From: a virus
Taxonomy: Duplodnaviria; Caudoviricetes
IMG/VR virus record: IMGVR_UViG_3300048893_000063
Coordinates: 1-41,497 of that record
Reading direction: 5' to 3' (one strand)
Length of the DNA: 41,497 nt
A program made the position numbers and the translations under genes. Below are positions 3,788 to 28,033 of the stretch, one piece after another (positions within the stretch are counted from its first letter, which is position 1; each line of letters begins with the position of its first letter). The notes beneath the pieces were generated by a model, which was given only the letters and a program-made list of their open reading frames with translations, did no database searches and was not told where the DNA came from.

Positions 3788-4924
3788 ATGAAATATCTTC
3801 ACGTGATCCAAGCTTGCGCGGCCGAGCCGTGGGCCATGCATTCGGCGAAGCTGCGCGCCGTCGTCGACGTGCTCGCCTTCCAGGCCTACGGCGGCAAGCT
3901 CGACGACACCGAGATCGAGGCGCGCGTCAGCGATCGTCGCGCCAACGATGTGACGCGCGCGCCTGGCGCCGTCGCGATCCTGCCGATCTATGGAATTCTT
4001 TCGCAGCGTCAGAACATGATGCAGGCGACCAGCGGCGGCACGTCGGTCGAGATCGCGCAGCAGGCCTTCCGCACCTTGATGGCCGACGACCAGGTGAAGG
4101 CCACCGTGATGAATTTCGACTCGCCGGGCGGCATGTCGAATGGCATCGAGGAATTTTCGCAGGAAATTTTCAACGCGCGCGGCATCAAGCCGATCGTCGC
4201 ACAGGTCGACTCGACCGCGGCGAGCGCGGCGCTGTGGCTCGCGAGCGCCTGCGACGAGATCGTCTGCACGCCTGGCGGATCGGTCGGATCGGTCGGCGTC
4301 TTCGCGGTTCACGAGGAAATGTCGAAGGCGCTGGAGTCCGAAGGCATCACGCGCACGCTGATCAGCTCGGGCGGCATCAAGGGGACGATCAACGACTTCA
4401 TGCCGCTGTCCGAAGAGGCAAAGGCCGAGATCGCGAGCCGCGTCGCCTACGTCGACGGCCTCTTCGTCAAGGCGCTGGCGCGCAATCGCGGCGTGGCGCA
4501 GTCGGCCGTGCCGGATCAGTTCGGCCGCGGCGAAATGTTCTCGCCGAAAGCCGCGCTCGACCGCGGCCTGATCGACCGCATCGCGCCGCTGTCGGAAACG
4601 CTCGCGCGCTTCGGCGCCGCGGCGCCGATGCTGCAGCGTCGCGGCGCCGTCACGTCGCTGCGCGCCGCAGCTGCGGCCGGCGACTTCAGCGATATTCCAC
4701 CTTCGACTGTCGAGGACGCGATGCGCGATGCATTCGGTCTGTCGAAGTCGCAAGCCGCGGCCAGCGCCGGCCACGTCTTGAAAGCGCTTCGCCGGGGCGA
4801 TCCCGACGAAGGCCGGAGCGAATCCGGTGACCAGCCGGCGCAACAGACTGCACCAACGCCTGCGGCAAGCGACCTGATCGCCCGGATCAGCGCTTCAGCA
4901 GCAGGATTTTCAAAACAAGGATGA
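3788..4924 (+). CDS. Prohead protease, S49 (SppA/ClpP-like) family
   Basis: DSPGG, AASAALWLASACDEI, VGSVGV motifs; ATG 3788 just after portal stop (the longer ORF from 3260 is overlap). Confidence 0.92.
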   Translation: MKYLHVIQACAAEPWAMHSAKLRAVVDVLAFQAYGGKLDDTEIEARVSDRRANDVTRAPGAVAILPIYGILSQRQNMMQATSGGTSVEIAQQAFRTLMADDQVKATVMNFDSPGGMSNGIEEFSQEIFNARGIKPIVAQVDSTAASAALWLASACDEIVCTPGGSVGSVGVFAVHEEMSKALESEGITRTLISSGGIKGTINDFMPLSEEAKAEIASRVAYVDGLFVKALARNRGVAQSAVPDQFGRGEMFSPKAALDRGLIDRIAPLSETLARFGAAAPMLQRRGAVTSLRAAAAAGDFSDIPPSTVEDAMRDAFGLSKSQAAASAGHVLKALRRGDPDEGRSESGDQPAQQTAPTPAASDLIARISASAAGFSKQG

Positions 4925-4931
4925 AACGAGC

Positions 4932-6281
4932 ATGAATCGTTTTCTGAAGATTGGCACCGGCCTCTGCCTGGTGCTCGCATTGGTCGCGATCGTCGCGATC
5001 ATTGCGCAGACGTCGCCCGGCGAGCTGCTCACCGCCGGCAGTGTGCTTGCCAATGCACCGGCGCCGCTCGCTGCCGACTGGCAACGCGAGCTGCAGGCGG
5101 TTAATGCCGCCTTCGAGACTCGCGACAAGGAATTGCGCGCGCTCGTCGAGAAGGGCAATTCCGAAGTTGCGGCAACCGGCAAGATTGCCGGCGAGACGCA
5201 GGCCGCGCTGCAGGCGCTCGTCGCCGATGGCACGAAACTGCAGGCGCGGCTGCTCGACGTCGAGCAGAAGCTTGGCCGGCGCAACGCCGGCGGCGGCGCG
5301 CAGGCCGTCGACTTCGATGCGCTCTTCGCCGAGCACAAAGGCCTTCAGCAACTGAAGGCGGGCCAGAGCCGTTCGGCGCGCATCGAGCTGACTCGCCATC
5401 AGCTGATGCACGGCGACATGCACGCTTCGATAACGTCGCTGCCGTCTTCCGCCGGTGACCTGATCGTCCCCGATCGGCGGCCTGGCATCCTGACGCCGGC
5501 CGAGCGCGGCTTCACCGTGCGCAACCTGGTGATGCCGGGCCGCACCGCATCGAACGCGATCGAGTTCGTGCAGGAAACCGGCTTCACCAACAACGCCGAC
5601 ACGGTGTCGGAAGGGGTGCTGAAGCCGGAGTCGCAGCTCACGTTCTCGATGGAGACTCGCGCGGTGCGCACCATCGCGCACTGGGTCAAAGCGTCGAAAC
5701 AGATTCTCGACGACGTGCCGCAGCTGCTCTCGTATGTGTCGGGCCGCCTGCGTTACGGCCTGGCTTACAAGGAAGAGCTGCAGCTCCTGCTCGGCGCCGG
5801 CACCGGCACCGATCTCGACGGTCTGAAGACCAACGCGACGGCCTATGACACTGCGCTGACCAAGGCCGGCGACACGAAGATCGACGTGATCCGCCACGCG
5901 ATCACGCAAGTGCGCGTCGCCGAGTACGCGGCGACCGGCGTCGTCATCAATCCTTACGATTGGGACGACATCGAAACCGAGAAGGATGACAACGGCCGTT
6001 ATATCTGGGCCAACGTCAACCTGAGCGGCGAGCAGCGTCTCTGGCGCCTGCCCGTGATCGACACGATGGCGATGCCGCGGGGTGAATTCCTCGTCGGTGC
6101 GTTCACGCCGGCGGCGCAGATTTTCGATCGCGAAGATGCCAGCGTCGTCGTGTCCAGCGAAGATCAGGACAACCTGGTCAAGAACATGGTCACGATCCTG
6201 GTCGAAGAGCGTCTCGTGCAGGCGATCTACCGGCCGGAAGCGATGGTCGAAGGCGATTATTCGCAGGCCAGCGGCGGCTGA
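4932..6281 (+). CDS. Major capsid protein, HK97 fold, with hydrophobic N-terminal extension
   Basis: V.EG.LKPES, TIAHWVKASKQILDD, LWRLPVI, KNMVTILVEERL motifs; coiled-coil delta-like N-terminal region. Confidence 0.96.
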   Translation: MNRFLKIGTGLCLVLALVAIVAIIAQTSPGELLTAGSVLANAPAPLAADWQRELQAVNAAFETRDKELRALVEKGNSEVAATGKIAGETQAALQALVADGTKLQARLLDVEQKLGRRNAGGGAQAVDFDALFAEHKGLQQLKAGQSRSARIELTRHQLMHGDMHASITSLPSSAGDLIVPDRRPGILTPAERGFTVRNLVMPGRTASNAIEFVQETGFTNNADTVSEGVLKPESQLTFSMETRAVRTIAHWVKASKQILDDVPQLLSYVSGRLRYGLAYKEELQLLLGAGTGTDLDGLKTNATAYDTALTKAGDTKIDVIRHAITQVRVAEYAATGVVINPYDWDDIETEKDDNGRYIWANVNLSGEQRLWRLPVIDTMAMPRGEFLVGAFTPAAQIFDREDASVVVSSEDQDNLVKNMVTILVEERLVQAIYRPEAMVEGDYSQASGG

Positions 6282-6310
6282 TAACCCCTACCGCAGACCA
6301 ATCGTCAGGG

Positions 6311-6338
6311 CGGCTCGGCAGCAATGCCGGGCCGTTTT
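6311..6338 (+). terminator. Intrinsic terminator after capsid gene
   Basis: CGGCTCGGCA-GCAA-TGCCGGGCCG hairpin followed by TTTT. Confidence 0.75.
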
Positions 6339-6389
6339 GCTTTGTAAGGGTAAGGGTGTGCTGTGCGTTCAACCTGGAGAAATTTTCCC

Positions 6390-6737
6390 ATGATGAAGAT
6401 GAAGGCGCTAAAAACTTTTCTCGGCCGTCCCGGCGAGGGCGAAGGCATCGACAACACGGTGCGCAAGGGCAAAGAGTTTTCCGTCGCCACGGAGCAGCGC
6501 GCGGTCGAGCTGGAGAAGATCGGCTGCGCGCAGCGGCTGAAGGGGCAGGGGCGGCCGGCGCGGCCGGCGCCGGCGAAGGCGAACACGGCCGCGGGCGCAG
6601 GCCCTTTGCATTCAGCTGGTGGCAAGACTGGCGAGGCTGCGTCGCCATCGTCGTCGCTGCCGGGCCTTCAGCCGCCGGTGCCCGTGAAGCGCTCGCCAAA
6701 GCGTCGCGGCGTAAGGGCCGGCGCCGCCCGCGACTGA
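6390..6737 (+). CDS. Small post-capsid (head accessory-like) protein; zero-frame product of a putative frameshift gene
   Basis: GGAGA RBS; MKMKALKTF...G.EF.V....A.EL...G.A pattern common in genes after capsid genes; low-complexity Ser/Pro/Arg tail. Confidence 0.75.
   Translation: MMKMKALKTFLGRPGEGEGIDNTVRKGKEFSVATEQRAVELEKIGCAQRLKGQGRPARPAPAKANTAAGAGPLHSAGGKTGEAASPSSSLPGLQPPVPVKRSPKRRGVRAGAARD
6602..6608 (+). other. Putative -1 frameshift slippery heptamer C_CCT_TTG
   Basis: X_XXY_YYZ in phase with ORF 6390; the -1 frame opens directly into the GT-like domain (PFAFSWWQDW...). Confidence 0.7.
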
Positions 6738-7240
6738 TCGTCGTCAACGAAAGCTGGCGCCTGGCGCCGTTCGCAGATGTCCTTTACGGCTGCGACGGCG
6801 CCTGGTGGCGCAAGCGCGGCGGCGTGCCGGAATTCGCCGGCACGAAGCTGACGCAGGATGCGAAAGCGGCCTGCGACTTTCCCGATCTGCACAAGGTCGA
6901 CGTGCGCAAGGGTGCCGATCGCATCCTGACCGACCATGCCGGAGCGATCGGCGACGGCGGCAACTCCGGCTTTCAGGCGATCAACGTCGCGGCGCAATTC
7001 GGGCCGCGGCGCCTGGTGCTGCTCGGCTTCGACATGCGCATCGATCGCGGCGCGCACTGGCACGGCCGCCATCCGCCGGGCTTGAACAATCCGACCGATC
7101 GCAACCTGGTGCGCTGGCGCCTGGTGATCGACCGATCGGCTGCGGAGCTTGCCGCGCTCGGCATCGAGGTCGTGAACGCCAGCCCCGTGTCGCTGCTGAA
7201 CGCCTTTCCCGTCATGTCGATCGAGGACGCGCTAAAATGA
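6602..7240 (+). CDS. Maf/DUF115 (MptE-like) glycosyltransferase-like domain, probably expressed as a frameshift fusion (6390..7240, ~283 aa)
   Basis: IVVAAGPS, IVVNES, YGCD, NSGFQAINVAAQFG..RLVLLGFD, EVVNASP motifs; no in-frame ATG/GTG/TTG near the domain start. Confidence 0.75.
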   Translation, partial: PFAFSWWQDWRGCVAIVVAAGPSAAGAREALAKASRRKGRRRPRLIVVNESWRLAPFADVLYGCDGAWWRKRGGVPEFAGTKLTQDAKAACDFPDLHKVDVRKGADRILTDHAGAIGDGGNSGFQAINVAAQFGPRRLVLLGFDMRIDRGAHWHGRHPPGLNNPTDRNLVRWRLVIDRSAAELAALGIEVVNASPVSLLNAFPVMSIEDALK

Positions 7241-7440
7241 CACACGATCTAAGCGACAAGCAGCTGCGCACCCTGCGCGATCGCTGCGAGCCAGGCTTAA
7301 AGCAGGGCGCGCTGCATGCGCCGCGCGATCCGGTGCAGTGTTTCGCCTATGTGATGCTTTCGTGCTTCGCCATGTCGGTCGACGTCGAGATCGCGCGGCG
7401 GGCCGAGCGCAGCGCTGCCGAGCAGGCGCGCAACAAATGA
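7237..7440 (+). CDS. Hypothetical protein
   Basis: ATGA overlaps with neighbours at both ends; 67 aa. Confidence 0.6.
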   Translation: MTHDLSDKQLRTLRDRCEPGLKQGALHAPRDPVQCFAYVMLSCFAMSVDVEIARRAERSAAEQARNK

Positions 7441-8069
7441 CCGGCACCCTGGCAAAAATCCTGGCGCCGACGTCATGGCCTTTGAGTCAGGCCGATGCGC
7501 GCGCCTTCGTCGTGATCGACGACGAGGACGCCGATCACCTGCGCGTGCTCGACATGGCGATCCGCGCAGCAACGCAGTATTGCGAGACGCGCAGCGGCCT
7601 GACGGCGCAGCGCACGACCTACCAGCTGCGGCTCGACCATTGGCCGCATTGCGATCCGCGGCGGTTCGATCACGGCGACACCAGCGCCGACATTCTGCTG
7701 ACTGCGGCGCCGGTGCGCGACGTGCTGTCGGTGACCTATGTCGATCCTGACGGCATCGAGCAGACCGTCAGCGACGCCGACTGGACCTGGGAGCGCACGC
7801 CGGAAGGCGCAACGGTGTCGCTGGCCGCCGGCTTCAGTCGGCCGACGCTGCGATCGAACCGCAAGGGCGTCGTGCGCGTGCTGTTCGACGCCGGCTTCGA
7901 CACGCCAGGCGAAAGCGGCAGCGGCGACGATCCGGAGCTGCAGCTGCCGGAGCAATTCATCATGGCGGTCGCGCAGCTCGTCGGCCACTTTTACGAAAAG
8001 CGCGACGCCGGCGGCGACGATATGAAGGCGGCCGATTGTCTGATCGACCAGGTGAAGGTTTATCGCTGA
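7437..8069 (+). CDS. Head-tail connector (gp6/phiE125 gp8-like)
   Basis: PLS..DARAF...D, AATQYCE...G, SVTYVDPDG..QT, F.AGF, LPE....AV.QLVGHFYE.R. Confidence 0.9.
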   Translation: MTGTLAKILAPTSWPLSQADARAFVVIDDEDADHLRVLDMAIRAATQYCETRSGLTAQRTTYQLRLDHWPHCDPRRFDHGDTSADILLTAAPVRDVLSVTYVDPDGIEQTVSDADWTWERTPEGATVSLAAGFSRPTLRSNRKGVVRVLFDAGFDTPGESGSGDDPELQLPEQFIMAVAQLVGHFYEKRDAGGDDMKAADCLIDQVKVYR

Positions 8070-9259
8070 TGAAATATCCGCATGTGATCACCGAGGCGCG
8101 CACCTTGGCGCTGCTGCACGACGGCCACTCGATCGCGCGCTTCGGCGACGGCGAGCTGCGGCTGGCGATCGGCAAGGAATGCACCAGCCAGCGTCGCGTG
8201 CCGGGCCTGGCCGAAGAGCTGCGCGCGATGCTTCAGGCGCCGCGGAATTGCCTGATCGGAATTCCCAACTTTGCGCAGACGCCGAAGGCCGAAAACTGGA
8301 CGCGCTACGCCGGCGAGCAGTTCACGCGGCTCTATGGCGCGAAGGAATATGCTTCGAGTTTCATCACCAGGCCGGACTCGGCGCCGTGGATCGATACGCC
8401 GGAATACTGGGCCGAGGTGCGCCGGCTCTGGGCCGGCCGCGACGTCATCCTGGTGCGAGGCGACGAGAAGTCGATCACGCCGGCGATGCTCGATGGCTCG
8501 GCCGCCAGCGTGCGGATCGTCGACGGGCCGCGGCAACACGCCTATGCGGACATTGACGCGATCGAGAAGGCGATCCTGAAGGCCGCGGGCGACGTCGCGC
8601 AGCAGTTGCACAGTGCGCCGCTGGTGATCCTGTGCCTCGGCGCGACCGCGACGGCGCTCGCCTATCGCCTGGCGCAGAAGCCAGGCCTGCAGGCCGTTGA
8701 TCTGGGTCATATCGGCATGTTCATGCGCCACGCCGGCGCCTATCGCTATCTGGCCGGCGATCTGGTGTCGGCCGACTATCGGGAGCAGCTCGAAATTCTG
8801 CACAGCTCGGCGCGGAAGTGGGGAACGGACGGCGCCAAGCATGCAGAAAAGGTGCTGCAGCTCGTCGACGAACTGGGCGCGAAAACGATCCTCGACTATG
8901 GCTGCGGCAAGGGCCGGCTGGCGGAGGCGATCGCGCCGGTGCGGGTGCAGGGCTACGATCCCGGCATTCCAGAGCGCGCCGGCATGCCGAAGCCGTGCGA
9001 TCTCGTCGTCTGCACCGACGTGCTGGAGCACGTCGAGCCGGATCGATTGCCGGCGGTGCTCGATCATATCGGCCGCCTGGCCGGCAAGGCCGCTTATCTG
9101 GTGATCTCGACGCGCGAAGCGCTGGCGATGCTGCCTGACGGCCGCAATGCGCACCTGATCGTTCGGCCGGGGTGCTGGTGGGTCAACGTCTGCCGCGCGA
9201 TGGGCGAGGTCGAGGCCGAGATCGACGGCAAAGAGGTTCGGCTGTGCATCCGCAAGTAA
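8069..9259 (+). CDS. GT-D fold (DUF1792-like) glycosyltransferase fused to class I SAM methyltransferase
   Basis: N-term SIARFGDGE, LIGIP, SSFITRP, LCLGATAT, AVDLGHI; C-term ILDYGCGKG, CTDVLEHV, DGRNAHL. Confidence 0.85.
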   Translation: MKYPHVITEARTLALLHDGHSIARFGDGELRLAIGKECTSQRRVPGLAEELRAMLQAPRNCLIGIPNFAQTPKAENWTRYAGEQFTRLYGAKEYASSFITRPDSAPWIDTPEYWAEVRRLWAGRDVILVRGDEKSITPAMLDGSAASVRIVDGPRQHAYADIDAIEKAILKAAGDVAQQLHSAPLVILCLGATATALAYRLAQKPGLQAVDLGHIGMFMRHAGAYRYLAGDLVSADYREQLEILHSSARKWGTDGAKHAEKVLQLVDELGAKTILDYGCGKGRLAEAIAPVRVQGYDPGIPERAGMPKPCDLVVCTDVLEHVEPDRLPAVLDHIGRLAGKAAYLVISTREALAMLPDGRNAHLIVRPGCWWVNVCRAMGEVEAEIDGKEVRLCIRK

Positions 9260-9900
9260 CAACGCCGCCGATCGTCGTCACCGACGAGGCGCTGCCGTAC
9301 CTGGTCGCGCAGAAGGGGCGGCTGCAGCCGCTGGCGCACGATCGCGACGCCTGGCTGATGGGTTACCGCCAGGCGATCGATCGCGACTATCGTTTGATTG
9401 CACCATATCTTCCGCCGAAGCCTGACGGCCACGCGATCAAAATCCTCGACATTGGGTCGGGCCTCGGCGGCATCGACGTAATGCTATCGCGGCACTACGG
9501 CGGCGCGGCGCAGGTCATCCTGATGGATGGCGCCGACGATCCGCCGGTGATGGAGCTGCATCGCAAGACGTTCAACGACATGCGCGTCGCCGAGCGCTTC
9601 CATCGCGCCAACGGTGCGGCGCCGATCGGCTGGATCGATGCCAACGGCGACCGGCTGCCGGCTGTCGGCGCTGGCGCCTGGCCGTTTGACCTGGTGCTGT
9701 CGCTGGGCAGCTGGTGCTTCCATTACGAGCCGGCGATCTATCTCGACCAGGTCAAAGAGGCGATCGTCGCCGGCGCCGTGCTGATCCTCGACGTGCGCAA
9801 GCAGCGGCCGAGCTGGGCTGCGCAGCTGATCTCGACCTTTCGTCTGCTCGCAATCGTTCACGTCAGCGACAAGATCGACCGCATGGTGCTGCGCGCATGA
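9244..9900 (+). CDS. Class I SAM-dependent methyltransferase
   Basis: ILDIGSGLGG, FDLVLSLGSWCFHY; GTG start with GAGG RBS. Confidence 0.8.
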   Translation: MHPQVTTPPIVVTDEALPYLVAQKGRLQPLAHDRDAWLMGYRQAIDRDYRLIAPYLPPKPDGHAIKILDIGSGLGGIDVMLSRHYGGAAQVILMDGADDPPVMELHRKTFNDMRVAERFHRANGAAPIGWIDANGDRLPAVGAGAWPFDLVLSLGSWCFHYEPAIYLDQVKEAIVAGAVLILDVRKQRPSWAAQLISTFRLLAIVHVSDKIDRMVLRA

Positions 9901-10499
9901 TCGAGAATGTCTGCGTCATCGGCGGCGGCTGGTCGGTGCGGGGTGTCGACCTGGCGGCGCTGCCCGGCATCCTGATCGGCGTCAATGATTCCGCCATTCA
10001 CGCGCGCGTCGACATTGCGGTCAGCATGGATCGGCTGTGGGCCGAGCATCGCTTCATCGAGCTGCGCGAGCGCCGTCGCCTAACCTACCTGCGCCGCTCG
10101 GCCGTGCAAAATCTCGACACGCGCTGGCCGTGGCTGCACGTCTTCGACAACGATCACGAAAGCGTCGAGCTGAGCGAAGACCTATCGCGGCTCAATGGCA
10201 CGAATTCCGGCGTCTGCGCGATCAACCTGGCGTTTCAGCTGCGGCCGAGGCGCCTGGTGCTGCTCGGCTTCGACATGAACCGCAGCCAGCACGGCGCCGC
10301 GCATTGGTATCCGCCCTATCCCTGGTCGACCGAAGCCGGCTCGACCAGCATCGGAAAATATAACGCATGGGCGGCGCAGTTCGATCGCATCGCGGCGCAA
10401 TGCAAGGCCGCAGGCATCGACGTCGTGAACGCCAGCCCGTCGAGCGCGATCAAGTCTTTCCGCAAGACGTCTGAATTCCACAAGGGGGCTGCAGCGTGA
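9897..10499 (+). CDS. Second Maf/DUF115-like glycosyltransferase-like protein
   Basis: VIGGGWS, IGVND, NSGVCAINLAF...RLVLLGFDM, DVVNASP; paralogue of 6602..7240. Confidence 0.75.
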   Translation: MIENVCVIGGGWSVRGVDLAALPGILIGVNDSAIHARVDIAVSMDRLWAEHRFIELRERRRLTYLRRSAVQNLDTRWPWLHVFDNDHESVELSEDLSRLNGTNSGVCAINLAFQLRPRRLVLLGFDMNRSQHGAAHWYPPYPWSTEAGSTSIGKYNAWAAQFDRIAAQCKAAGIDVVNASPSSAIKSFRKTSEFHKGAAA

Positions 10500-11218
10500 G
10501 ACAAGTCACGATCGTGCTCGCGTACTATCTCAACGCCGGCATGCTGCAGCGGCAATACGAAGAGCTGCGTGCGCTGCCGGAGCCGCTGCGCGAGCAGCTC
10601 GCGCTGATCGTCGTCGACGACGGCTCGCCGGTGCCGGCGATCGGCGCCGAGATCGGCATGCCGCTCAAGATATTCCGCATGCGCAAGGATGTGCGCTGGA
10701 ATCAGGACGCCTGCCGGAATATCGGCGTGCATCACGCGGAGACGCGCTGGGTGCTGCTGACCGATATGGATCACCTGGCACCGCTCGCGACGCTGCAGTC
10801 GCTGGTCTATGGCAGCTTCGACCAGGCCGCTGTTTATAAATTCGCGCGCGTCTCGGCGCCTGATCTGGCGCCGTACAAGCCGCATCCGAATTCCTGGTTT
10901 ATGACTCGGAAAATGTTCGACCGGATCGGCGGCTATGACGAGCGCTTCGCCGGCTATTACGGCACCGACGCCGACTTCCGCGATCGCGTCAAGAAAATCG
11001 CCAGGATCGAGCAGCTCGACGACGTCTTGATCCGTGTGCCGCGCGAAGTGATCCCTGACGCTTCGACGACAACCTATGGCCGGAAGGAAAAGCAGGACGC
11101 GGTCGGCATCAAGCGCGTGATGCACGAGCGCGATCGCGTGAGGGGCTGGAAGCCGCTGCGCCTGACGTTTCCTTACGATTGCGTCTGGGAGCAGCCGGTC
11201 AAGGGCGGCGCGTTCTGA
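10496..11218 (+). CDS. GT-A glycosyltransferase (GT2/GT7-like)
   Basis: IVVDDGS, CRNIG, LLTDMD (DxD), IGGYDERFAGYYGTD.DF. Confidence 0.9.
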   Translation: MRQVTIVLAYYLNAGMLQRQYEELRALPEPLREQLALIVVDDGSPVPAIGAEIGMPLKIFRMRKDVRWNQDACRNIGVHHAETRWVLLTDMDHLAPLATLQSLVYGSFDQAAVYKFARVSAPDLAPYKPHPNSWFMTRKMFDRIGGYDERFAGYYGTDADFRDRVKKIARIEQLDDVLIRVPREVIPDASTTTYGRKEKQDAVGIKRVMHERDRVRGWKPLRLTFPYDCVWEQPVKGGAF

Positions 11219-11928
11219 TGCTGGCCGTCGTCTGCTGGAAGTGGAAGCCGAAGCCCGGCTATCGATCGACGTTCGGCGCCGACCAGGTCAACGTGCTGCG
11301 CTCGATGGTCGAGCGGCACTATGCCAGGCCGCACCAGCTCGTTTGCATCACCGACGACGCCGCCGGCATCGATCCGCGGGTGCGCGTCGTGCCGCTCTGG
11401 AGGGATCACGCGACGCTGCCGTCGCCGCACGGCGGCAACAATCCGAGCTGCTATCGCCGGCTGCGCGCCTTCTCGGCCGAGGCCGCCGAGCTGATCGGGC
11501 CGCGCTTCGTGTCGGTCGATCTCGATGCAGTCATCGTGCGCGACATGCGGCCTGTCTGGGACCGCGACGCAGACTTCGTGATCTGGGGCGATACCAATCC
11601 GACGACGCCCTACAACGGCTCGATGTGGATGCTGCGCGCCGGCACCAGGCGCAAGGTCTGGGAAACTTTCGATCCGAAGCGCTCGCCGCGGATCGGTCTG
11701 TCGAAGCGCTACTTCGGCAGCGACCAGGCCTGGATCGCCGCCTGCCTCGGCCCAAATGAGCGGCGCTGGACGCGCGCCGATGGCGTTTACAGCTATCGAA
11801 ACGAGATCGCGCCGAAGGGCGGCGATCTGCCGGCCGATGCGCGCATCGTGTTCTTTCACGGCCGCCATGATCCCTGGCACAGCGACATTCAGGCGAAGCA
11901 CGCCTGGGTGCGCGAGCATTGGAAGTAG
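11218..11928 (+). CDS. GT-A glycosyltransferase (phage GT8-like)
   Basis: VVCWKW, LVCITDD, VDLD (DxD), YNGSM, SDQAWI, IVFFHG..DPW. Confidence 0.82.
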   Translation: MLAVVCWKWKPKPGYRSTFGADQVNVLRSMVERHYARPHQLVCITDDAAGIDPRVRVVPLWRDHATLPSPHGGNNPSCYRRLRAFSAEAAELIGPRFVSVDLDAVIVRDMRPVWDRDADFVIWGDTNPTTPYNGSMWMLRAGTRRKVWETFDPKRSPRIGLSKRYFGSDQAWIAACLGPNERRWTRADGVYSYRNEIAPKGGDLPADARIVFFHGRHDPWHSDIQAKHAWVREHWK

Positions 11929-11931
11929 AAA

Positions 11932-12300
11932 ATGCCGGCACCATTCAAGGGCAAGGCGATCGCCAAGCGCCGCGCGCTGCGTCACCGGCTCGCCTTCGAG
12001 GCGCGGCCGTTCTCGTCGGACGGTCACGGCAACACCGAAGGCGAATTCGAGACGGTCTTCATCATTCACGCGGCGATCGAGGCGCGGCTCGGCGGCGAGC
12101 AGGTGCTGGCGCAGCGGCTCGTCGGCGTGCAGCCGGTGACGATTGGCATCCGACAGTCGCGGGCAACGAAGATGATCACGACCGATTGGCGCGCGCGGCA
12201 CCTGGTCACCGGCGTGATCTACAATATCCGATCCATCGCCGACGCCGATGATGATCGCCGCTACTTCGATCTGCTCTGCGACAGCGGGGTCGCGACATGA
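11932..12300 (+). CDS. Head closure / head-tail joining protein
   Basis: LRHRL.F, DG.GN, I.IR, ITTDWR, YNIRSI pattern; position. Confidence 0.85.
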   Translation: MPAPFKGKAIAKRRALRHRLAFEARPFSSDGHGNTEGEFETVFIIHAAIEARLGGEQVLAQRLVGVQPVTIGIRQSRATKMITTDWRARHLVTGVIYNIRSIADADDDRRYFDLLCDSGVAT

Positions 12301-12719
12301 CGGTGCCGGCCGATCCAGCCCTGCCGCTGCAGGATGCGCTGATCAAGATGCTGCGCAACGATTCCGCCATCAAGGCGCTAGTCGACGCGCGCGTCTTCGA
12401 CGAGCCGCCGGCGCCGGCCGCGGCCGTGTTTCCTTATGTGACGTTGGGCGACGATCAGATCATCGGCGACGATGCCGAAGACTGCGGCGACGGGTCGGAA
12501 GTTTTCGCGCATATCCATGTCTGGACGCGCACGCCGGGCTTCGTGAAAACAAAGGAAATTTCGGCGGCGATCCGCAACGTGCTGAAGACCTATCCGGTGC
12601 TGGAGGGCTTCGAGGTCACGGTCGTCGAATTCGAGCAGGTGCAATATCTGCGCGATCCTGACGGCAAGACGCGGCACGGCGTTCTGGAGTTCAAGTTTCT
12701 GATTTCACACACCAGCTAG
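12297..12719 (+). CDS. Tail terminator (DUF3168-like)
   Basis: LQ.A....L, RVFDEPP, FPYVTLG, HVWTR..G, RDPDG.TRHG. Confidence 0.9.
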   Translation: MTVPADPALPLQDALIKMLRNDSAIKALVDARVFDEPPAPAAAVFPYVTLGDDQIIGDDAEDCGDGSEVFAHIHVWTRTPGFVKTKEISAAIRNVLKTYPVLEGFEVTVVEFEQVQYLRDPDGKTRHGVLEFKFLISHTS

Positions 12720-12732
12720 GAAAGGCTTTCAA

Positions 12733-13179
12733 ATGACGGCAATCGTGAAGCTGCGCGGCACGCAGCTGCTGATCAAGGTCGGCGACGGCAACTCGCCGGA
12801 AACGTTCGCGCATCCGTGCCTGATCAATACCAAGCGCGGCCTAAAGTTCACGTCGAGTTCTAACAAGGTGATCACGCCGGATTGCGACAATCCCGACGAT
12901 CCGGCCTGGAATGAGGTCATTAAAGACGCGCTGTCTGCGGCGATCGACGGCGCAGGCAAGCTCGATAACAAGGTGGCGACAATCCAGTTTTACGACGAAT
13001 TTTTTCGCAGTGCCGATGCGAGAAATGTTCGCGTCTGCCTTGGCACTAAGGGCTATTGGGAAGGCCCATTCCAGCTGACCGGCTGGGAGATTACCGGCGA
13101 GCGCGGCAACAACGCCGAGTCCAGTCTATCGCTGGAGTCGGACGGTGAGCTTGGGCCGTTTACGCCTGGTATCGGCTGA
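12733..13179 (+). CDS. Tail tube (major tail) protein
   Basis: LLIKVGDG.SPETF, PDCDNPD.P.W, W.G.F.LT, LESDG motifs (GTA/TP901-like). Confidence 0.9.
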   Translation: MTAIVKLRGTQLLIKVGDGNSPETFAHPCLINTKRGLKFTSSSNKVITPDCDNPDDPAWNEVIKDALSAAIDGAGKLDNKVATIQFYDEFFRSADARNVRVCLGTKGYWEGPFQLTGWEITGERGNNAESSLSLESDGELGPFTPGIG

Positions 13180-13628: not shown

Positions 13629-14060
13629 ATGGCTGCAGTGGGAACGGTGCGCATCGTGTGGGGCAACGGCGAGGACGACTTCTGCATCGCCAGGCCCGGC
13701 GAGATTTTTGCGCTGGAAGACAAAACCGGCGCCGGCCTCGGCGAGATCAGGATGCGGCTGCAGGACGGAAGCTGGCGCCTGACGATGGTGCGCGAGACGA
13801 TCCGCCTGGCGCTGATCGGCGCCGGCATGGATGCCGACAAGGCGATGAAGGCCGTCGAGCTGCACGTCGACAACAACGTGAAGGGATACGCGCCGAGCAT
13901 CCTGATCGCGCACGCGATCGTCGCCGCGGCGCTGGTCGGCGTGCCGGATGATCCGGTGGGAAAAACGCCGGCGCCGGGGGCCGCGAAACAGGACCAAGTC
14001 TCTTCCACGACGACGGTCGCCTCCGACGCTCTGCGGTCTATGGAATCGGGGCAGGCTTAG
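13629..14060 (+). CDS. Tail assembly chaperone (gpG; GTA gp10-like)
   Basis: VRETIRLALIGAGM motif; lies between tail tube and tape measure. Confidence 0.88.
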   Translation: MAAVGTVRIVWGNGEDDFCIARPGEIFALEDKTGAGLGEIRMRLQDGSWRLTMVRETIRLALIGAGMDADKAMKAVELHVDNNVKGYAPSILIAHAIVAAALVGVPDDPVGKTPAPGAAKQDQVSSTTTVASDALRSMESGQA

Positions 14061-24497: not shown

Positions 24498-25730
24498 ATG
24501 GAAGCCATGCTTAAACACCCTGTATTTATAGCGGTTCTGACGCTCTGGCTGGCGCTGCTCGCGCCGGCGCCTGGTGTCACGGCCGAGATCGGGCCGGTGA
24601 TGACGGCGCCGACGTCGGCCGGCTGTACGGCGAGCGCGCGCGGCGGCGACGCCTCGACCTGGGGCGGCGGCGGCCAGGCCTGGCGTCTGTTCGATCGTAT
24701 CGTCTCCGGGCAAAACGGCTGGTATGACAGCCACTCGATCACGTCGAGCGTGCCGGATTGGGCGCAGCTGACATGCGCGGCGCCGCTTGCGGTCGCGTCC
24801 TATGCCATCCGCAGCCGCTGTGACTCGTCGGGCGATGAGGCGACGGCCTTCGTGCTCGCCGGATCGAACGACGGCGGCGCGACGCTTACGTCGCTTGATG
24901 CGCGCAGCGGCGTCAGCTGGTCGTCGGCGTGCCAGGAGCAGACCTTCACGATCGCGTCGCCCGGCAGCTTCACGACCTACCGGCTGACGGTGACGGCCGC
25001 CAATGCCGACCAGCCGGTGATCACCGAGCTGCGACTGTTTTCGGACGCGGGCGATCCGCCGGCCGCGGCGATCGCAGGCGGCGTGATCGCCAAGGTGGTG
25101 CTGACCAGGCCAGGCTCGCTCGATCTGCTCGCCGGCACGGCGCCGGCGTCGATCCCTGCGCGCGACAACGCCGCCGAGTTTTGGGGTGACCTGGTGTCGC
25201 GGCATGTCTCGGCGCAGGGCATGCTGGCGCTGATCGGCGGCAGCGTCGCGGTGATCGGCGACAGCCACACGCAAGGCTTCGACGTTTCGCAGATCAGTCC
25301 CTTTGCGTTCAATTACGGCATCGGCGGCGATTCGGTCGCCGACGTGCTCAACCGGATCGGCAGCTATTCGTCGCTGCACAACGCCGGCGCGATCGTGCTC
25401 TATGGCCTCGGCGGCAACGATGCCAATCAAGGTTATACGGCCGCACAGATCGAGGCGCGGCTGACGATGCTCTGGGCCTGGGTCAGCGGGCCGCTGGTGG
25501 TGATCAAGATTCCGCCGGCGAAGCCCGACGAGACGGCCAAGCAGGCGACGATCGAGGCCGTCAATGCCTGGACCGATACTTTCCTGGCGGGTCGTGCCAG
25601 CACGATCGTCGTCGACAATAATGCGTGGATCATCGCCAACGGCGGACTCGACGCGAGCGGGCACCTGACGCCGGAAGCGAAGCTGCGCAATGCGGCGAGC
25701 GCCGCGGCTGCGGTCGCGACGTTTCATTGA
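24498..25730 (+). CDS. Secreted discoidin-domain + SGNH/GDSL esterase
   Basis: Signal peptide; F.L.GSNDG...YRL.VT discoidin motif; IGDSHT, GIGGD, GGNDA, D..H blocks. Confidence 0.8.
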
Positions 25731-26134
25731 TGCGTTCGGCAATGCGAGCGCTCGTCGCGGCGCTGATCCTGTTCGCGCCGCCGGCCGCGGCCGAGCAAGG
25801 CATCGCCTCGATCTATGGCACCAGGCGCGACGGCCACGCCGGCAAATGCGTGGCGGTGCAGAAGCCGCCGGTGATGCGCCGCGGCCTTCGTCGACCTGGC
25901 GGCTGCGCGCTGCTCGATCCGCGCGCGCTGACGGCCGCGCATCGCACGCTGCCGTTCGGCACGATCGTCACGGTCACCAATCGAAGGAACGGCCGCCAGG
26001 CCGCGGTCACGATCAACGATCGCGGTCCATTCCGACGCGGCCGGATCATCGACCTGACGCCGGCCGCGGCCGGCGAGCTGGGCTTCGACGACGACGGCGA
26101 CGGCCTGGCGCCGGTCACGATTTCACAACCCTGA
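25730..26134 (+). CDS. RlpA-like (DPBB) lytic transglycosylase with signal peptide
   Basis: [25 protein letters not shown]...V.INDRGPF..GRIIDL. Confidence 0.92.
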
Positions 26135-26150
26135 CGATGGAGCTGACGAC

Positions 26151-26927
26151 ATGACGATCGCCGCCCTGGTAATTGGCGGGCCGCTGAAGCGCGGGCCGCT
26201 CAAACTTCAATCCGTGTTCACGCTGCAGCTCGCGCTGGTGAAGATCGGCGACCTGGTCGGCAGCTCGCCGGATGGCGAATTCGGGCCGAAGACCGAAGAG
26301 GCCGTCGAGCTGGCGCAGGTTGCGGCGAAGCTGCCGAAGACCGGCGTCGTCGACGACGCGACTGCGCGCGCGATCGACATGCGGGTCGCGCTGGCGCCGC
26401 CGGCGCCTGGCGTGTCGATGCCTGGCGATCCGGAATGGATGAAGATCGCAACGGCGTTGCTCGGCATCTATGAGCTGCCTGGCGACGCCGACAACGAAAC
26501 GATCCTGGCATGGGCGCGCGCGCTCGGCGGCATGATCGCGCGGGAGTACAAGCACGACTCGATCGCCTGGTGCATGCTGTTCGTTCAATATTGTCTATTC
26601 AAGGCCGGCCAGCCGCATCTTGATTCACTCTGGGCGCTCGACTCGGCGACCTATGGCGTGAAGCTCCAGGGGCCTGCTCGCGGCGCGATCGGCTGCAAGC
26701 ATCGCGCCGGCGGCGGCGGTCATACCTTCCTGATCGCCGGCCGCTCGGCCAGCGGCATGCTGGTGATCCGCGGCGGCAATCAATCCGACATGGTCTGCGA
26801 CGCCGAGATCGCGCCGGCCGAGCTGGTGTCGTCGAATTGGCCGAAGGGCCAGCCGCTGCCGGCGGCGATCGGCTTCTCGCATCTGCCGATCGTGAAGGAT
26901 GCACCGCGCAGCAAGCGCGAAGCCTGA
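26151..26927 (+). CDS. Endolysin: peptidoglycan-binding domain + TIGR02594/CHAP-like peptidase
   Basis: LQ..L...DG.FGPKT..AV..Q...L..TG.VD; P.WM..A...LG..E..G..N, AWC..FV, GGHT, GGNQSD. Confidence 0.88.
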   Translation: MTIAALVIGGPLKRGPLKLQSVFTLQLALVKIGDLVGSSPDGEFGPKTEEAVELAQVAAKLPKTGVVDDATARAIDMRVALAPPAPGVSMPGDPEWMKIATALLGIYELPGDADNETILAWARALGGMIAREYKHDSIAWCMLFVQYCLFKAGQPHLDSLWALDSATYGVKLQGPARGAIGCKHRAGGGGHTFLIAGRSASGMLVIRGGNQSDMVCDAEIAPAELVSSNWPKGQPLPAAIGFSHLPIVKDAPRSKREA

Positions 26928-26967
26928 TCCATTCCCGAATTTTCAAACCGCAACGGAGAAGACTGCA

Positions 26968-27264
26968 ATGGCTGAGAGTGAACCGACGACGCCAAACCTG
27001 CCGACCGGCGACGGCTCGTCGTCGCAGATCGTCAATCCGCCGAGCCGATGGCGCGCGTTCTGGGATGATCTCGGCATCCTGAAGGCGCTCGCGATCGTCG
27101 TCGTCGTCTCGTATATCGGCATCGTCGCGGCCGGCGGCACGGCCGACGAGACACACAAAAACATGGCCCTGATGGTCATGGCATTTTTCTTTGGGTCGAG
27201 CCTCGGCTCGCGTAACAAGGACGCGACGCCGCCGGCGCCGCTGCCTCCCGCGGCGGGGGGCTAG
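26968..27264 (+). CDS. Holin-like membrane protein
   Basis: Two hydrophobic segments, FFFGSS.GS..KD motif, GGAG RBS, after endolysin. Confidence 0.7.
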   Translation: MAESEPTTPNLPTGDGSSSQIVNPPSRWRAFWDDLGILKALAIVVVVSYIGIVAAGGTADETHKNMALMVMAFFFGSSLGSRNKDATPPAPLPPAAGG

Positions 27265-27268
27265 TCCG

Positions 27269-28033
27269 ATGCTGGGACCGCACGCCTGGCTTGGCTGCCG
27301 CCGTGACACCAGGGACGGCCGAGATCGCGAATTCCAGCCGCGGGCGGTGCATCTGCCTTCCGCGGTCGATCTGCGCAGCCACTGCGCGCCTGTGATGGAT
27401 CAGGGGGAGCTGGGCAGCTGCACAACCCACGCTATCACCGGCGCGCTGCGCTATCTGCGGATCAAGGCCGGCAAGCGCGACGTGCCCCTGGCCAGGCTGC
27501 AGCTCTACTTCGACGAGCGGAAGACGGAAGGCACGATCGGCGAGGACGCCGGCGCCGAGATCAGGAACGGCATCAAGTGTGCCGCCCGATACGGCGTCGC
27601 GCCGGAGCAACTCTGGCCGTATGACCCAGCGCGGTTCAAGCACTGTCCGCCGGCGTCAGTCTATGCGGCGGCGCAGGATTGGCAGGCGCTGAGTTATGAG
27701 CGCGTGCCGGTGTCGACGGCCGCCATCAAGGCGGCGATCGCGCAGGGATTGCCCGTCGTGATTGGCGTTTCGCTCTATGACAGCTTCGACGGCAGGCTGG
27801 TCGAGCAGAGCGGCATGGTTCCGATGCCCGATCTGAAGCGCGAGCAGATGACCGGCGGCCATTGCATGCTCGTCGTCGGCTATGGCCAGCACGAAGGCAC
27901 CTTCACGGTGCGCAACAGCTGGGCCGACGACTGGGGCGATCGCGGCGACTGCTACATGCCTGAAGCCTATCTCGGCTCGACGAAGTTCGGGTCGGATTAT
28001 TGGGTGATCAAGTCGGAAGAGTTGCCCGACTGA
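27269..28033 (+). CDS. Papain-like C1 cysteine peptidase
   Basis: LPSAVDLR, DQGELGSCT (Gln/Cys), GGHC..VGY, RNSW..WGD.G. Confidence 0.93.
   Translation: MLGPHAWLGCRRDTRDGRDREFQPRAVHLPSAVDLRSHCAPVMDQGELGSCTTHAITGALRYLRIKAGKRDVPLARLQLYFDERKTEGTIGEDAGAEIRNGIKCAARYGVAPEQLWPYDPARFKHCPPASVYAAAQDWQALSYERVPVSTAAIKAAIAQGLPVVIGVSLYDSFDGRLVEQSGMVPMPDLKREQMTGGHCMLVVGYGQHEGTFTVRNSWADDWGDRGDCYMPEAYLGSTKFGSDYWVIKSEELPD

Follow-up and report, generated by a model that had tools for sequence, protein, structure and literature searches.

A glycosyltransferase cassette among the head and neck genes of a temperate siphophage: a candidate pathway for virion glycosylation with a predicted frameshift fusion

The IMG/VR entry IMGVR_UViG_3300048893_000063 is a complete virus record of 41.5 kb (41,497 nucleotides), here called the window. 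Its + strand carries genes for terminase, portal, S49 protease, HK97-type capsid, neck, tail-tube, tape-measure and tail-tip proteins, as found by Pfam and PHROG scans. Its - strand carries an integrase and repressor-like genes. Together with the set of virion genes, these identify the window as a temperate siphophage. Between the capsid gene and the head-closure gene lies a cassette of five glycosyltransferase (GT)-like domains and two S-adenosylmethionine (SAM) methyltransferase domains. The enzymes of this cassette probably glycosylate the assembling virion with a methylated oligosaccharide, which would be made late, in the cytoplasm, and primed by a tethered Maf-like enzyme. The most specific mechanistic clue is a predicted -1 frameshift, overlooked in an earlier note on this DNA, that would join the first enzyme to a small protein encoded right after the capsid.

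From capsid to head closure, the genes form a single co-oriented and tightly coupled block (Table 1), and GC content is level with the remainder of the genome. The earlier note had placed all seven enzyme domains here, on one strand and flanking the connector gene, and Pfam, PHROG, profile and fold searches bear out this inventory. It had also described the genes as joined by overlapping stops and starts. The tight coupling is real, but the description fails for the first Maf-like domain, which has no nearby start, and for the second methyltransferase, which begins with GTA. Its claim that the enzymes lack transmembrane helices and signal peptides agrees with a crude hydropathy scan, not a dedicated predictor of either, in which their maximum over 19 residues is 1.67, compared with 2.84 for the capsid N-terminus. 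The 67-codon open reading frame (ORF) within the block has no Pfam, PHROG or locus match.

Table 1. Features of the capsid to head-closure block (positions in the window)
Feature	Position	Strand	Evidence
HK97-type major capsid protein, 449 amino acids, C-terminus SQASGG, candidate acceptor	4932..6281	+	PF05065 E 7e-53
Small post-capsid protein, 115 amino acids in frame 0: N-terminal domain of about 50 amino acids with a probable gpFI-C/NTL9 fold, linker, basic tail	6390..6737	+	phrog_2616; AlphaFold; Foldseek; DUF7302/DUF7210 neighbours
Predicted -1 slippery heptamer C_CCT_TTG	6602..6608	+	sequence; heptamer survey across loci
Maf/CstII-fold transferase domain 1, 212 amino acids; predicted C-terminal part of a 283-amino-acid frameshift fusion	6602..7240	+	phrog_4603; AlphaFold/Foldseek; in-frame fusions in homologues
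67-codon ORF between Maf-like 1 and connector, ATGA-coupled on both sides	7237..7440	+	sequence
Head-tail connector, gp6-like	7437..8069	+	phrog_442 E 3e-15
GT-D (DUF1792) glycosyltransferase fused to SAM methyltransferase 1, 396 amino acids	8069..9259	+	PF08759, PF13489; 5v4a, 4phr
SAM methyltransferase 2; GTA at the homologous start position, alternative GTG 9172	9256..9900	+	weak Pfam match, motif, ESM neighbours
Maf/CstII-like transferase 2, 200 amino acids, own ATG	9897..10499	+	phrog_4603 E 1e-23; HHalign to domain 1
GT2/GT7-like GT-A glycosyltransferase, 240 amino acids	10496..11218	+	PF10111; GT2 structure profile matches
GT8-like (glycogenin/Gat1-like) glycosyltransferase, 236 amino acids; PHROG family shared with phage P1 PmgQ	11218..11928	+	phrog_1962
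Head-closure protein, downstream boundary	11932..12300	+	PF05521 E 1e-17

Several of the enzymes are identified by standard family models. The GT-D domain matches PF08759 at E 3e-22 (79.9 bits, against a gathering score of 27), gives a profile match to the structure 5v4a at E 8e-17 and shares the RFGDGE motif. The methyltransferase fused to it (PF13489, E 7e-12) and the GT2-like protein (PF10111, E 8e-11, with profile matches to GT2 structures) also pass their Pfam cut-offs. Methyltransferase 2 has a weak Pfam match (E 0.0075), a conserved LDIGxGxGG motif, and ESM feature neighbours that are methyltransferases (0.94-0.98). The GT8-like protein belongs to phrog_1962 (E 1.5e-13) and has profile matches to glycogenin and to Gat1 (6mw5, E 2.7e-4). 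Its GT-A DxD motif, D101-x-D103, is invariant in 59 sequences. It has no Pfam match; since the cut-off of PF01501 in particular is not reached, “GT8-like” is used only as a label.

The two Maf-like domains are both members of phrog_4603 and align with each other at an HHalign probability of 99.9%; by sequence, the second is a paralogue of the first. Neither has a Pfam match at E 0.01, and no PF01973 or GT42 model scores above its cut-off. Domain 1 was the one of the two that was folded, giving an AlphaFold model with a pLDDT of 96. In Foldseek this model matches the sialyltransferase CstII (E 1e-4) and a Magnetospirillum Maf protein (E 2.6e-4, TMq 0.60). Its profile search returns sialyltransferases, and its profile matches CstII itself at E 0.03.

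There is no start codon near Maf-like domain 1: the sole in-frame start is GTG 6356, 82 codons upstream. The domain overlaps the small post-capsid ORF by 136 nucleotides in the -1 frame, and its homology begins at C_CCT_TTG, a canonical X_XXY_YYZ heptamer in the frame of the small ORF. The background rate of such heptamers in the genes of this phage is 8 per 263 sequence windows. CCT and TTT are disfavoured codons in this phage (CCT is used 24 times and CCG 158 times, TTT 29 times and TTC 117 times). It is very likely that a programmed -1 slip at this site, as predicted from the sequence, yields two products of 115 and 283 amino acids.

The same junction was surveyed in 90 non-redundant loci, the window included. 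A start was counted as ATG, GTG or TTG within 35 codons upstream of the conserved motif. Loci were skipped if the match started after query residue 20, if fewer than 330 nucleotides lay upstream, if the motif was missing or if they were duplicated. In 32 loci, the small-domain gene overlaps the Maf-like gene in the -1 register. None of these has a start, and 27 have an in-frame heptamer. Among the 58 loci without the overlap, 52 have a start and six a heptamer; two of these six, L041 and L131, contain no start, and in both an upstream ORF that escaped the profile overlaps the gene. The association between heptamer and overlap has a Fisher p of 2e-12, not corrected for kinship.

The heptamer type varies between groups (CCCTTTN, GGGAAAN, CCCAAAA and AAAAAAN). 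Heptamers in the same register are also found in other phages: the cultured phage D3 has C_CCA_AAG at the orf6.5/orf7 junction and Psp6 has T_TTT_TTG, while S20 has the same CCCTTTG as the window. Finally, in six of the 120 best Maf-1 profile homologues, the small domain is fused to the transferase in frame.

Other explanations of the frame break were rejected. GTG 6356 is not accepted as the start of Maf-1: the extension that it would add lacks conservation, and in most relatives this place holds an in-frame stop or has no start. An assembly error is not accepted either, since 32 loci with differing heptamers share this -1 overlap. A hand-drawn stimulatory hairpin was also discarded; it is out of register and scores below its own shuffles.

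In five loci (L005, L006, L007, L016 and L022), the overlap lies upstream of the Maf-1 match and C_CCT_A or T_TTT_A stands at the place of the canonical heptamer; these loci possibly use a non-canonical slip. A second slippery site in the window, G_GGA_AAA at 13958-13964, lies in the tail assembly chaperone gene, where the -1 frame is open to 14212. This is the classic G/GT frameshift.

The AlphaFold model of the small domain at the head of both products has a pLDDT of 83. It has no significant match in Foldseek. Heading the list are GINS B domains and the C-terminal domain of lambda gpFI (2lsm), the latter with the best TMq (0.61, prob 0.96, E 0.40), and NTL9 ranks lower. A weak HHalign match to lambda FI falls on residues 104-130 of 132, in other words on the C-terminal part, which Popovic is said to have identified in 2012 as the head-binding part of gpFI. 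The FI gene of lambda directly follows the major capsid gene, as the small gene does here. Passages of PMC4856287 describe gpFI as a DNA-packaging chaperone with proposed binding to the gpE prohead lattice and non-specific binding to DNA.

The frame-0 tails of the small proteins are basic: across the last 20 residues in 32 loci, K+R averages 25%, compared with 6% for D+E. Because of this basic tail, the 2lsm-like fold, the position after the capsid gene, and the lattice and DNA binding of gpFI, the modelled frame-0 product looks like a gpFI-type helper with its domain order reversed. By analogy, the small domain likely binds the prohead as gpFI does in lambda. The frame-0 product would then be a packaging helper, and the fusion would bring an enzyme to the capsid lattice.

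The most plausible acceptor is the C-terminus of the major capsid protein. At least two Ser/Thr among the last six capsid residues are found in 18 of 20 loci with the full cassette, in 12 of 33 with a partial cassette and in 5 of 44 without one; since these groups are largely clades, with one to five independent pairs, the correlation is a lead and not evidence of co-evolution. This survey dropped 12 of 109 rows (GT-negative, with less than 2.5 kb downstream), and L175 was dropped as a duplicate of L001. The capsid of this phage ends in SQASGG, and that of D3 ends in SLTAS. The mycobacteriophage-type system presumably has its Ser/Thr acceptor site at the capsid C-terminus.

The capsid precursor has a further peculiarity. 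Its N-terminus (4932-5020) is strongly hydrophobic and signal-anchor-like, with a hydropathy of 2.84, and the same is found in its closest homologues. This segment may tie prohead assembly to the membrane.

The survey of related phages places the enzyme genes among the head, neck or packaging genes of unrelated capsid lineages. In tblastn searches with the proteins of this phage, a co-oriented virion gene is found nearby in 71 of 80 Maf-1 loci, 18 of 22 GT-D loci and 8 of 35 GT8-like loci; no opposite-strand virion gene was found in that survey. From the loci without a structural match in tblastn, 14 were sampled and scanned with PHROG (70 of 183 candidate ORFs). In 11 of these 14, there are co-oriented genes from other capsid types that encode a terminase, portal, capsid, adaptor or tail protein, and in six sampled loci the cassette lies directly upstream of terminase. 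GT-D, both methyltransferases, and the GT2-like and GT8-like genes occur together after a capsid gene in 15 other loci.

The cassette is not a fixed part of the head operon. Only 3 of 59 non-redundant loci collected with the capsid as seed carry any of these glycosyltransferases (2 of 46 when at least 2.5 kb of downstream sequence is required), which marks the block as accessory, and the enzyme genes are missing in most close capsid relatives. The partners also change. A scan of 59 chosen ORFs in relatives found GT9, GT8, Methyltransf_24, FkbM, hexapeptide acyltransferase and radical SAM families, as expected for variable tailoring of a glycan.

The proposed process starts on the ribosome. Most ribosomes would read through 6390-6737 to make the 115-residue protein with its gpFI-C-like domain and basic tail. 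A minority would slip at the heptamer, producing the 283-residue fusion of the small domain with Maf-like domain 1 at a small fixed ratio. The small domain would bind the prohead, so that the fusion tethers the transferase to the capsid lattice. Maf-like 1 would next use a host nucleotide sugar to place a first sugar on Ser/Thr of a virion protein, in all likelihood at the capsid C-terminus; the donor would be a CMP-sugar if the enzyme resembles CstII and Maf.

The GT-D, GT2-like, GT8-like and Maf-like 2 enzymes would then extend or branch the glycan, again with host nucleotide sugars, and the methyltransferases would cap it. A gene for sugar-nucleotide synthesis was not found among the window ORFs scanned with Pfam and PHROG. 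The finished glycan would be an accessory and variable feature that alters surface properties and is dispensable for assembly. In coliphage P1, according to passages of PMC10695390, the related genes pmgO, pmgP and pmgQ are non-essential by CRISPR interference.

A broader version of this model extends to many proteobacterial phages, including the cultured D3. In these, a frameshift or a hard-wired fusion would put a Maf-fold glycosyltransferase on a gpFI-like head-binding domain, priming a phage-built, methylated and hypervariable capsid glycan coat made from host surface-glycan precursors. P1 pmgOPQ would be a free-standing version. The chances for and against this generalization appear evenly balanced.

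Some observations speak against the glycosylation model or parts of it. Concerning the frameshift, a canonical heptamer is missing in 5 of the 32 overlap loci, and a conserved 3' stimulatory hairpin is unsupported: the z-score is -1.4 in the window and below -2 in 3 of 10 loci, and the RNAalifold consensus 3' of the heptamer is weak (-2.1 kcal/mol, with no covariation). The gpFI match of the small domain is weak, its fold is shared by GINS B and L9, and the HHalign probability for lambda FI is only 8%. Methyltransferase 2 has GTA where it overlaps the upstream stop, compared with an ATG or GTG nearby in 21 of 22 homologue rows, and its expression in this phage may be reduced or reliant on the nearest canonical start, GTG 9172. 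For the Ser/Thr tails of the capsids, the independent pairs number one on well-supported branches and five on all branches (sign test p 1). Searched with tblastn, the GT2-like, GT8-like and GT-D/methyltransferase proteins hit no mycobacteriophage record at E 1e-3, a result compatible with remote GT-A homology.

Gene placement has exceptions too. L087 has five cassette genes beside the integrase, opposite the tail and lysis genes, and its Maf-1 lies 25 kb away in the neck region. In L103 the cassette and terminase are convergent, and in L130 none of the neighbouring genes was identified as a virion gene. Virion glycosylation, as the earlier note proposed, is still the best reading and gains from the synteny, but L087 and L103 have the cassette opposite the late genes. 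The relative represented by L087 (8995-12842) and L253 thus has a split cassette, and its Maf-1 gene has a probable start of its own.

An alternative is that the enzymes modify a glycan or glycoprotein of the host surface (lipopolysaccharide core, exopolysaccharide, pilin or flagellin) from the cytoplasmic side, serving superinfection exclusion or receptor masking as a moron within the late operon. Maf, GT9 and GT8 families act on bacterial flagellin and lipopolysaccharide core, the phage is temperate, and the arrangements in L087 and L103 would suit such a role. However, a crude scan found no sigma-70-like promoter on the + strand within 4900-12800, the translation of Maf-1 very likely depends on the post-capsid gene, and the hydropathy scan shows no membrane anchor. 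The placement among head genes also recurs in unrelated phages. In P1, the C1 repressor has an operator immediately upstream of pmgN-O-P, an indication of lytic expression. Modification of the host surface is thus unlikely, yet it is the strongest of the alternatives.

Another possibility is that a virion protein is glycosylated but the acceptor differs from the major capsid protein. It could be the small gpFI-like protein itself or a neck or tail protein, or else the enzyme could be carried in the particle. For instance, the PAJU2 homologue ORF010 is annotated as “structural protein” (by annotation only), the related cluster of Caulobacter phage Colossus follows tail genes, and the frame-0 tails contain Ser runs, though their sequence is constrained by overlapping coding. 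The phylogenetic non-independence of the Ser/Thr-tail test leaves room for this as well. Against it, the frameshift partner follows the capsid gene and resembles a head-binding domain, and nearly all full-cassette capsids end Ser/Thr-rich. An acceptor elsewhere in the virion is improbable.

Equally improbable is the view that phage DNA is what the enzymes glycosylate and methylate, during packaging or earlier, with the gpFI-like tether bringing the first enzyme to the site of DNA entry, the prohead. The packaging role of gpFI, the basic frame-0 tails and the six loci with the cassette directly upstream of terminase would fit. Yet the scanned ORFs of the window include no gene for modified-base synthesis and no DNA polymerase; all that was found, elsewhere, is a conventional DNA methyltransferase and a nucleotidase. 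The closest structures are protein or glycan transferases, and the companion genes belong to sugar O-methyl- and O-acyl-type families.

Least probable of all is that the Maf-like domains are MptE-like nucleotide-dependent kinases or transferases in a cassette whose product is a soluble metabolite, a sugar or nucleotide that might for example counter host defence, and that the virion is not covalently modified: domain 1 does match the diphosphokinase MptE/HPPK (8sd5) at E 1.3e-3, a point against the glycosylation model, many homologues carry the precomputed label PF01973 (MptE-like) and P1 pairs these genes with a protein phosphatase, but CstII and Maf rank above MptE in Foldseek, the profile search does not return MptE, and there would be little point in tethering the enzyme to a capsid-adjacent domain if its product diffuses away.

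The sequencing runs that contain the window sequence are soil metagenomes. Contigs of the probable source run are identical to the window across 6324-11102. In the run of a second study, the listed pieces match parts of the window exactly, with none across 6602 or 9256. Among the 120 best homologues of the integrase, the sole taxonomically named match is a Bradyrhizobiaceae metagenome-assembled genome (62%), and the order of neck and tail genes matches a Bradyrhizobium prophage (L149). Because of this match and synteny, the alphaproteobacterial host assumed in the earlier note is plausible, as an inference from these relatives. Elsewhere in the window, after the tail-fibre genes, lie genes for a GDSL esterase-like protein, a peptidoglycan-binding lysin and a papain-like (C1/C39) peptidase (24498-28033).

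Glycosylation of particle proteins in tailed phages is documented, in the published work covered, for a small number of mycobacteriophages, in which it protects the virion against antibodies. If the model is true, virion glycosylation extends to Gram-negative phages with different enzyme families; on its broader version, it would be widespread among them rather than a mycobacteriophage oddity. Genes of model phages that have long lacked an assignment, such as D3 orf7 and P1 pmgO/P/Q, would gain a function, and frameshifting would have a new use, the delivery of an enzyme to the prohead in a fixed proportion. The annotation of such transferases, which are routinely called with wrong starts, can also be corrected. 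The model bears on phage ecology, on the pharmacology of phage therapy and on glycoengineering with small soluble transferases. It is testable because the cultured phages D3 and P1 carry homologues.

Comparison with known systems shows where the cassette departs from them. Programmed -1 frameshifts of tailed phages include lambda gpG/gpGT and the capsid extensions of T3, T7 and A2, according to passages of PMC5009743. The predicted frameshift shares with them the X_XXY_YYZ heptamer, a minor product with a different C-terminus and a place in the virion operon, but here the transframe part is an enzyme. Within the first 300,000 of that review's 449,034 characters, the word “glycosyltransferase” is absent. 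Lambda gpFI is likewise encoded right after the major capsid gene, and the small domain weakly matches its 2lsm fold, but in the window this domain is N-terminal instead of C-terminal, is followed by a basic tail and is shared with an enzyme through the predicted frameshift.

The Maf-like enzyme type, as modelled for domain 1, resembles the flagellin glycosyltransferase Maf (5mu5) and the GT42 sialyltransferase CstII (1ro7) in fold, with TMq values of 0.60 and 0.49, and in the aligned motifs GPS, VN, xSG and GxD. It differs in being a stand-alone domain of 200 amino acids with 12-14% identity that lacks the rest of the domains found in the 632-residue Maf chain. The GT-D domain resembles the streptococcal DUF1792 enzymes of serine-rich-repeat glycosylation (5v4a, 4phr) in its above-cut-off Pfam match and RFGDGE motif. 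Unlike these, it is fused to a methyltransferase and found in a phage, and no serine-rich repeat substrate is present among the structural proteins checked.

Cassettes of the same families are present, uncharacterised, in several phages, and no description of the cassette or frameshift was found in the titles and abstract openings of the open-access literature. They include Pseudomonas phage D3 (orf6.5, orf7, orf12 and orf13), PAJU2 (ORF010-012), coliphage P1 (pmgO, pmgP and pmgQ; hdmB-D in P7) and “Tetraselmis viridis virus” S20 (TVGG_00050-41). In S20 the cassette is almost complete, lies at the corresponding place and has an identical heptamer, and D3 shares the -1 overlap, whereas the copies in P1 and PAJU2 each start with a codon of their own. 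In P1, pmgO and pmgP are Maf-like, and pmgQ is in the same PHROG as the GT8-like gene. In D3, PAJU2, P1/P7 and S20, these genes are annotated only as hypothetical, as “sialyltransferase” or as morphogenetic proteins.

In the P1 locus pmgN-pmgQ (L143:5769-8424), a C1 operator precedes two genes of the Maf-like type, one for a protein phosphatase and one of the GT8-like type; in P7 the locus is called “head morphogenesis” (hdm). In Caulobacter phage Colossus (L145:5890-10443), Maf-like, GT-A, methyltransferase and GT9 genes lie between the tail and lysis genes, and the Caulobacter jumbo phages are cultured.

The closest analogue in function is the glycosylation of mycobacteriophage virions. Freeman and colleagues reportedly described this O-glycosylation in 2023 for Che8, Corndog and Myrna. 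In these phages both the capsid and the tail tube are glycosylated, as stated in parts of PMC12363180, PMC13445384 and PMC11256854. In the F1 mycobacteriophage Maravista, as described in part of its source, the transferases lie close to the genome's 3' end, so gene position alone is not decisive. No sequence match to those phages was found for the GT2-like, GT8-like or GT-D proteins, and the cassette, a candidate pathway, is not classed with them, though it would work like their system. Both have phage-encoded soluble glycosyltransferases, proposed to act on capsid or tail, and both consist of accessory genes. What distinguishes the cassette is its Maf/CstII-fold and GT-D enzymes, its location in the head-neck block, a likely proteobacterial host and a predicted frameshift fusion as its first enzyme.

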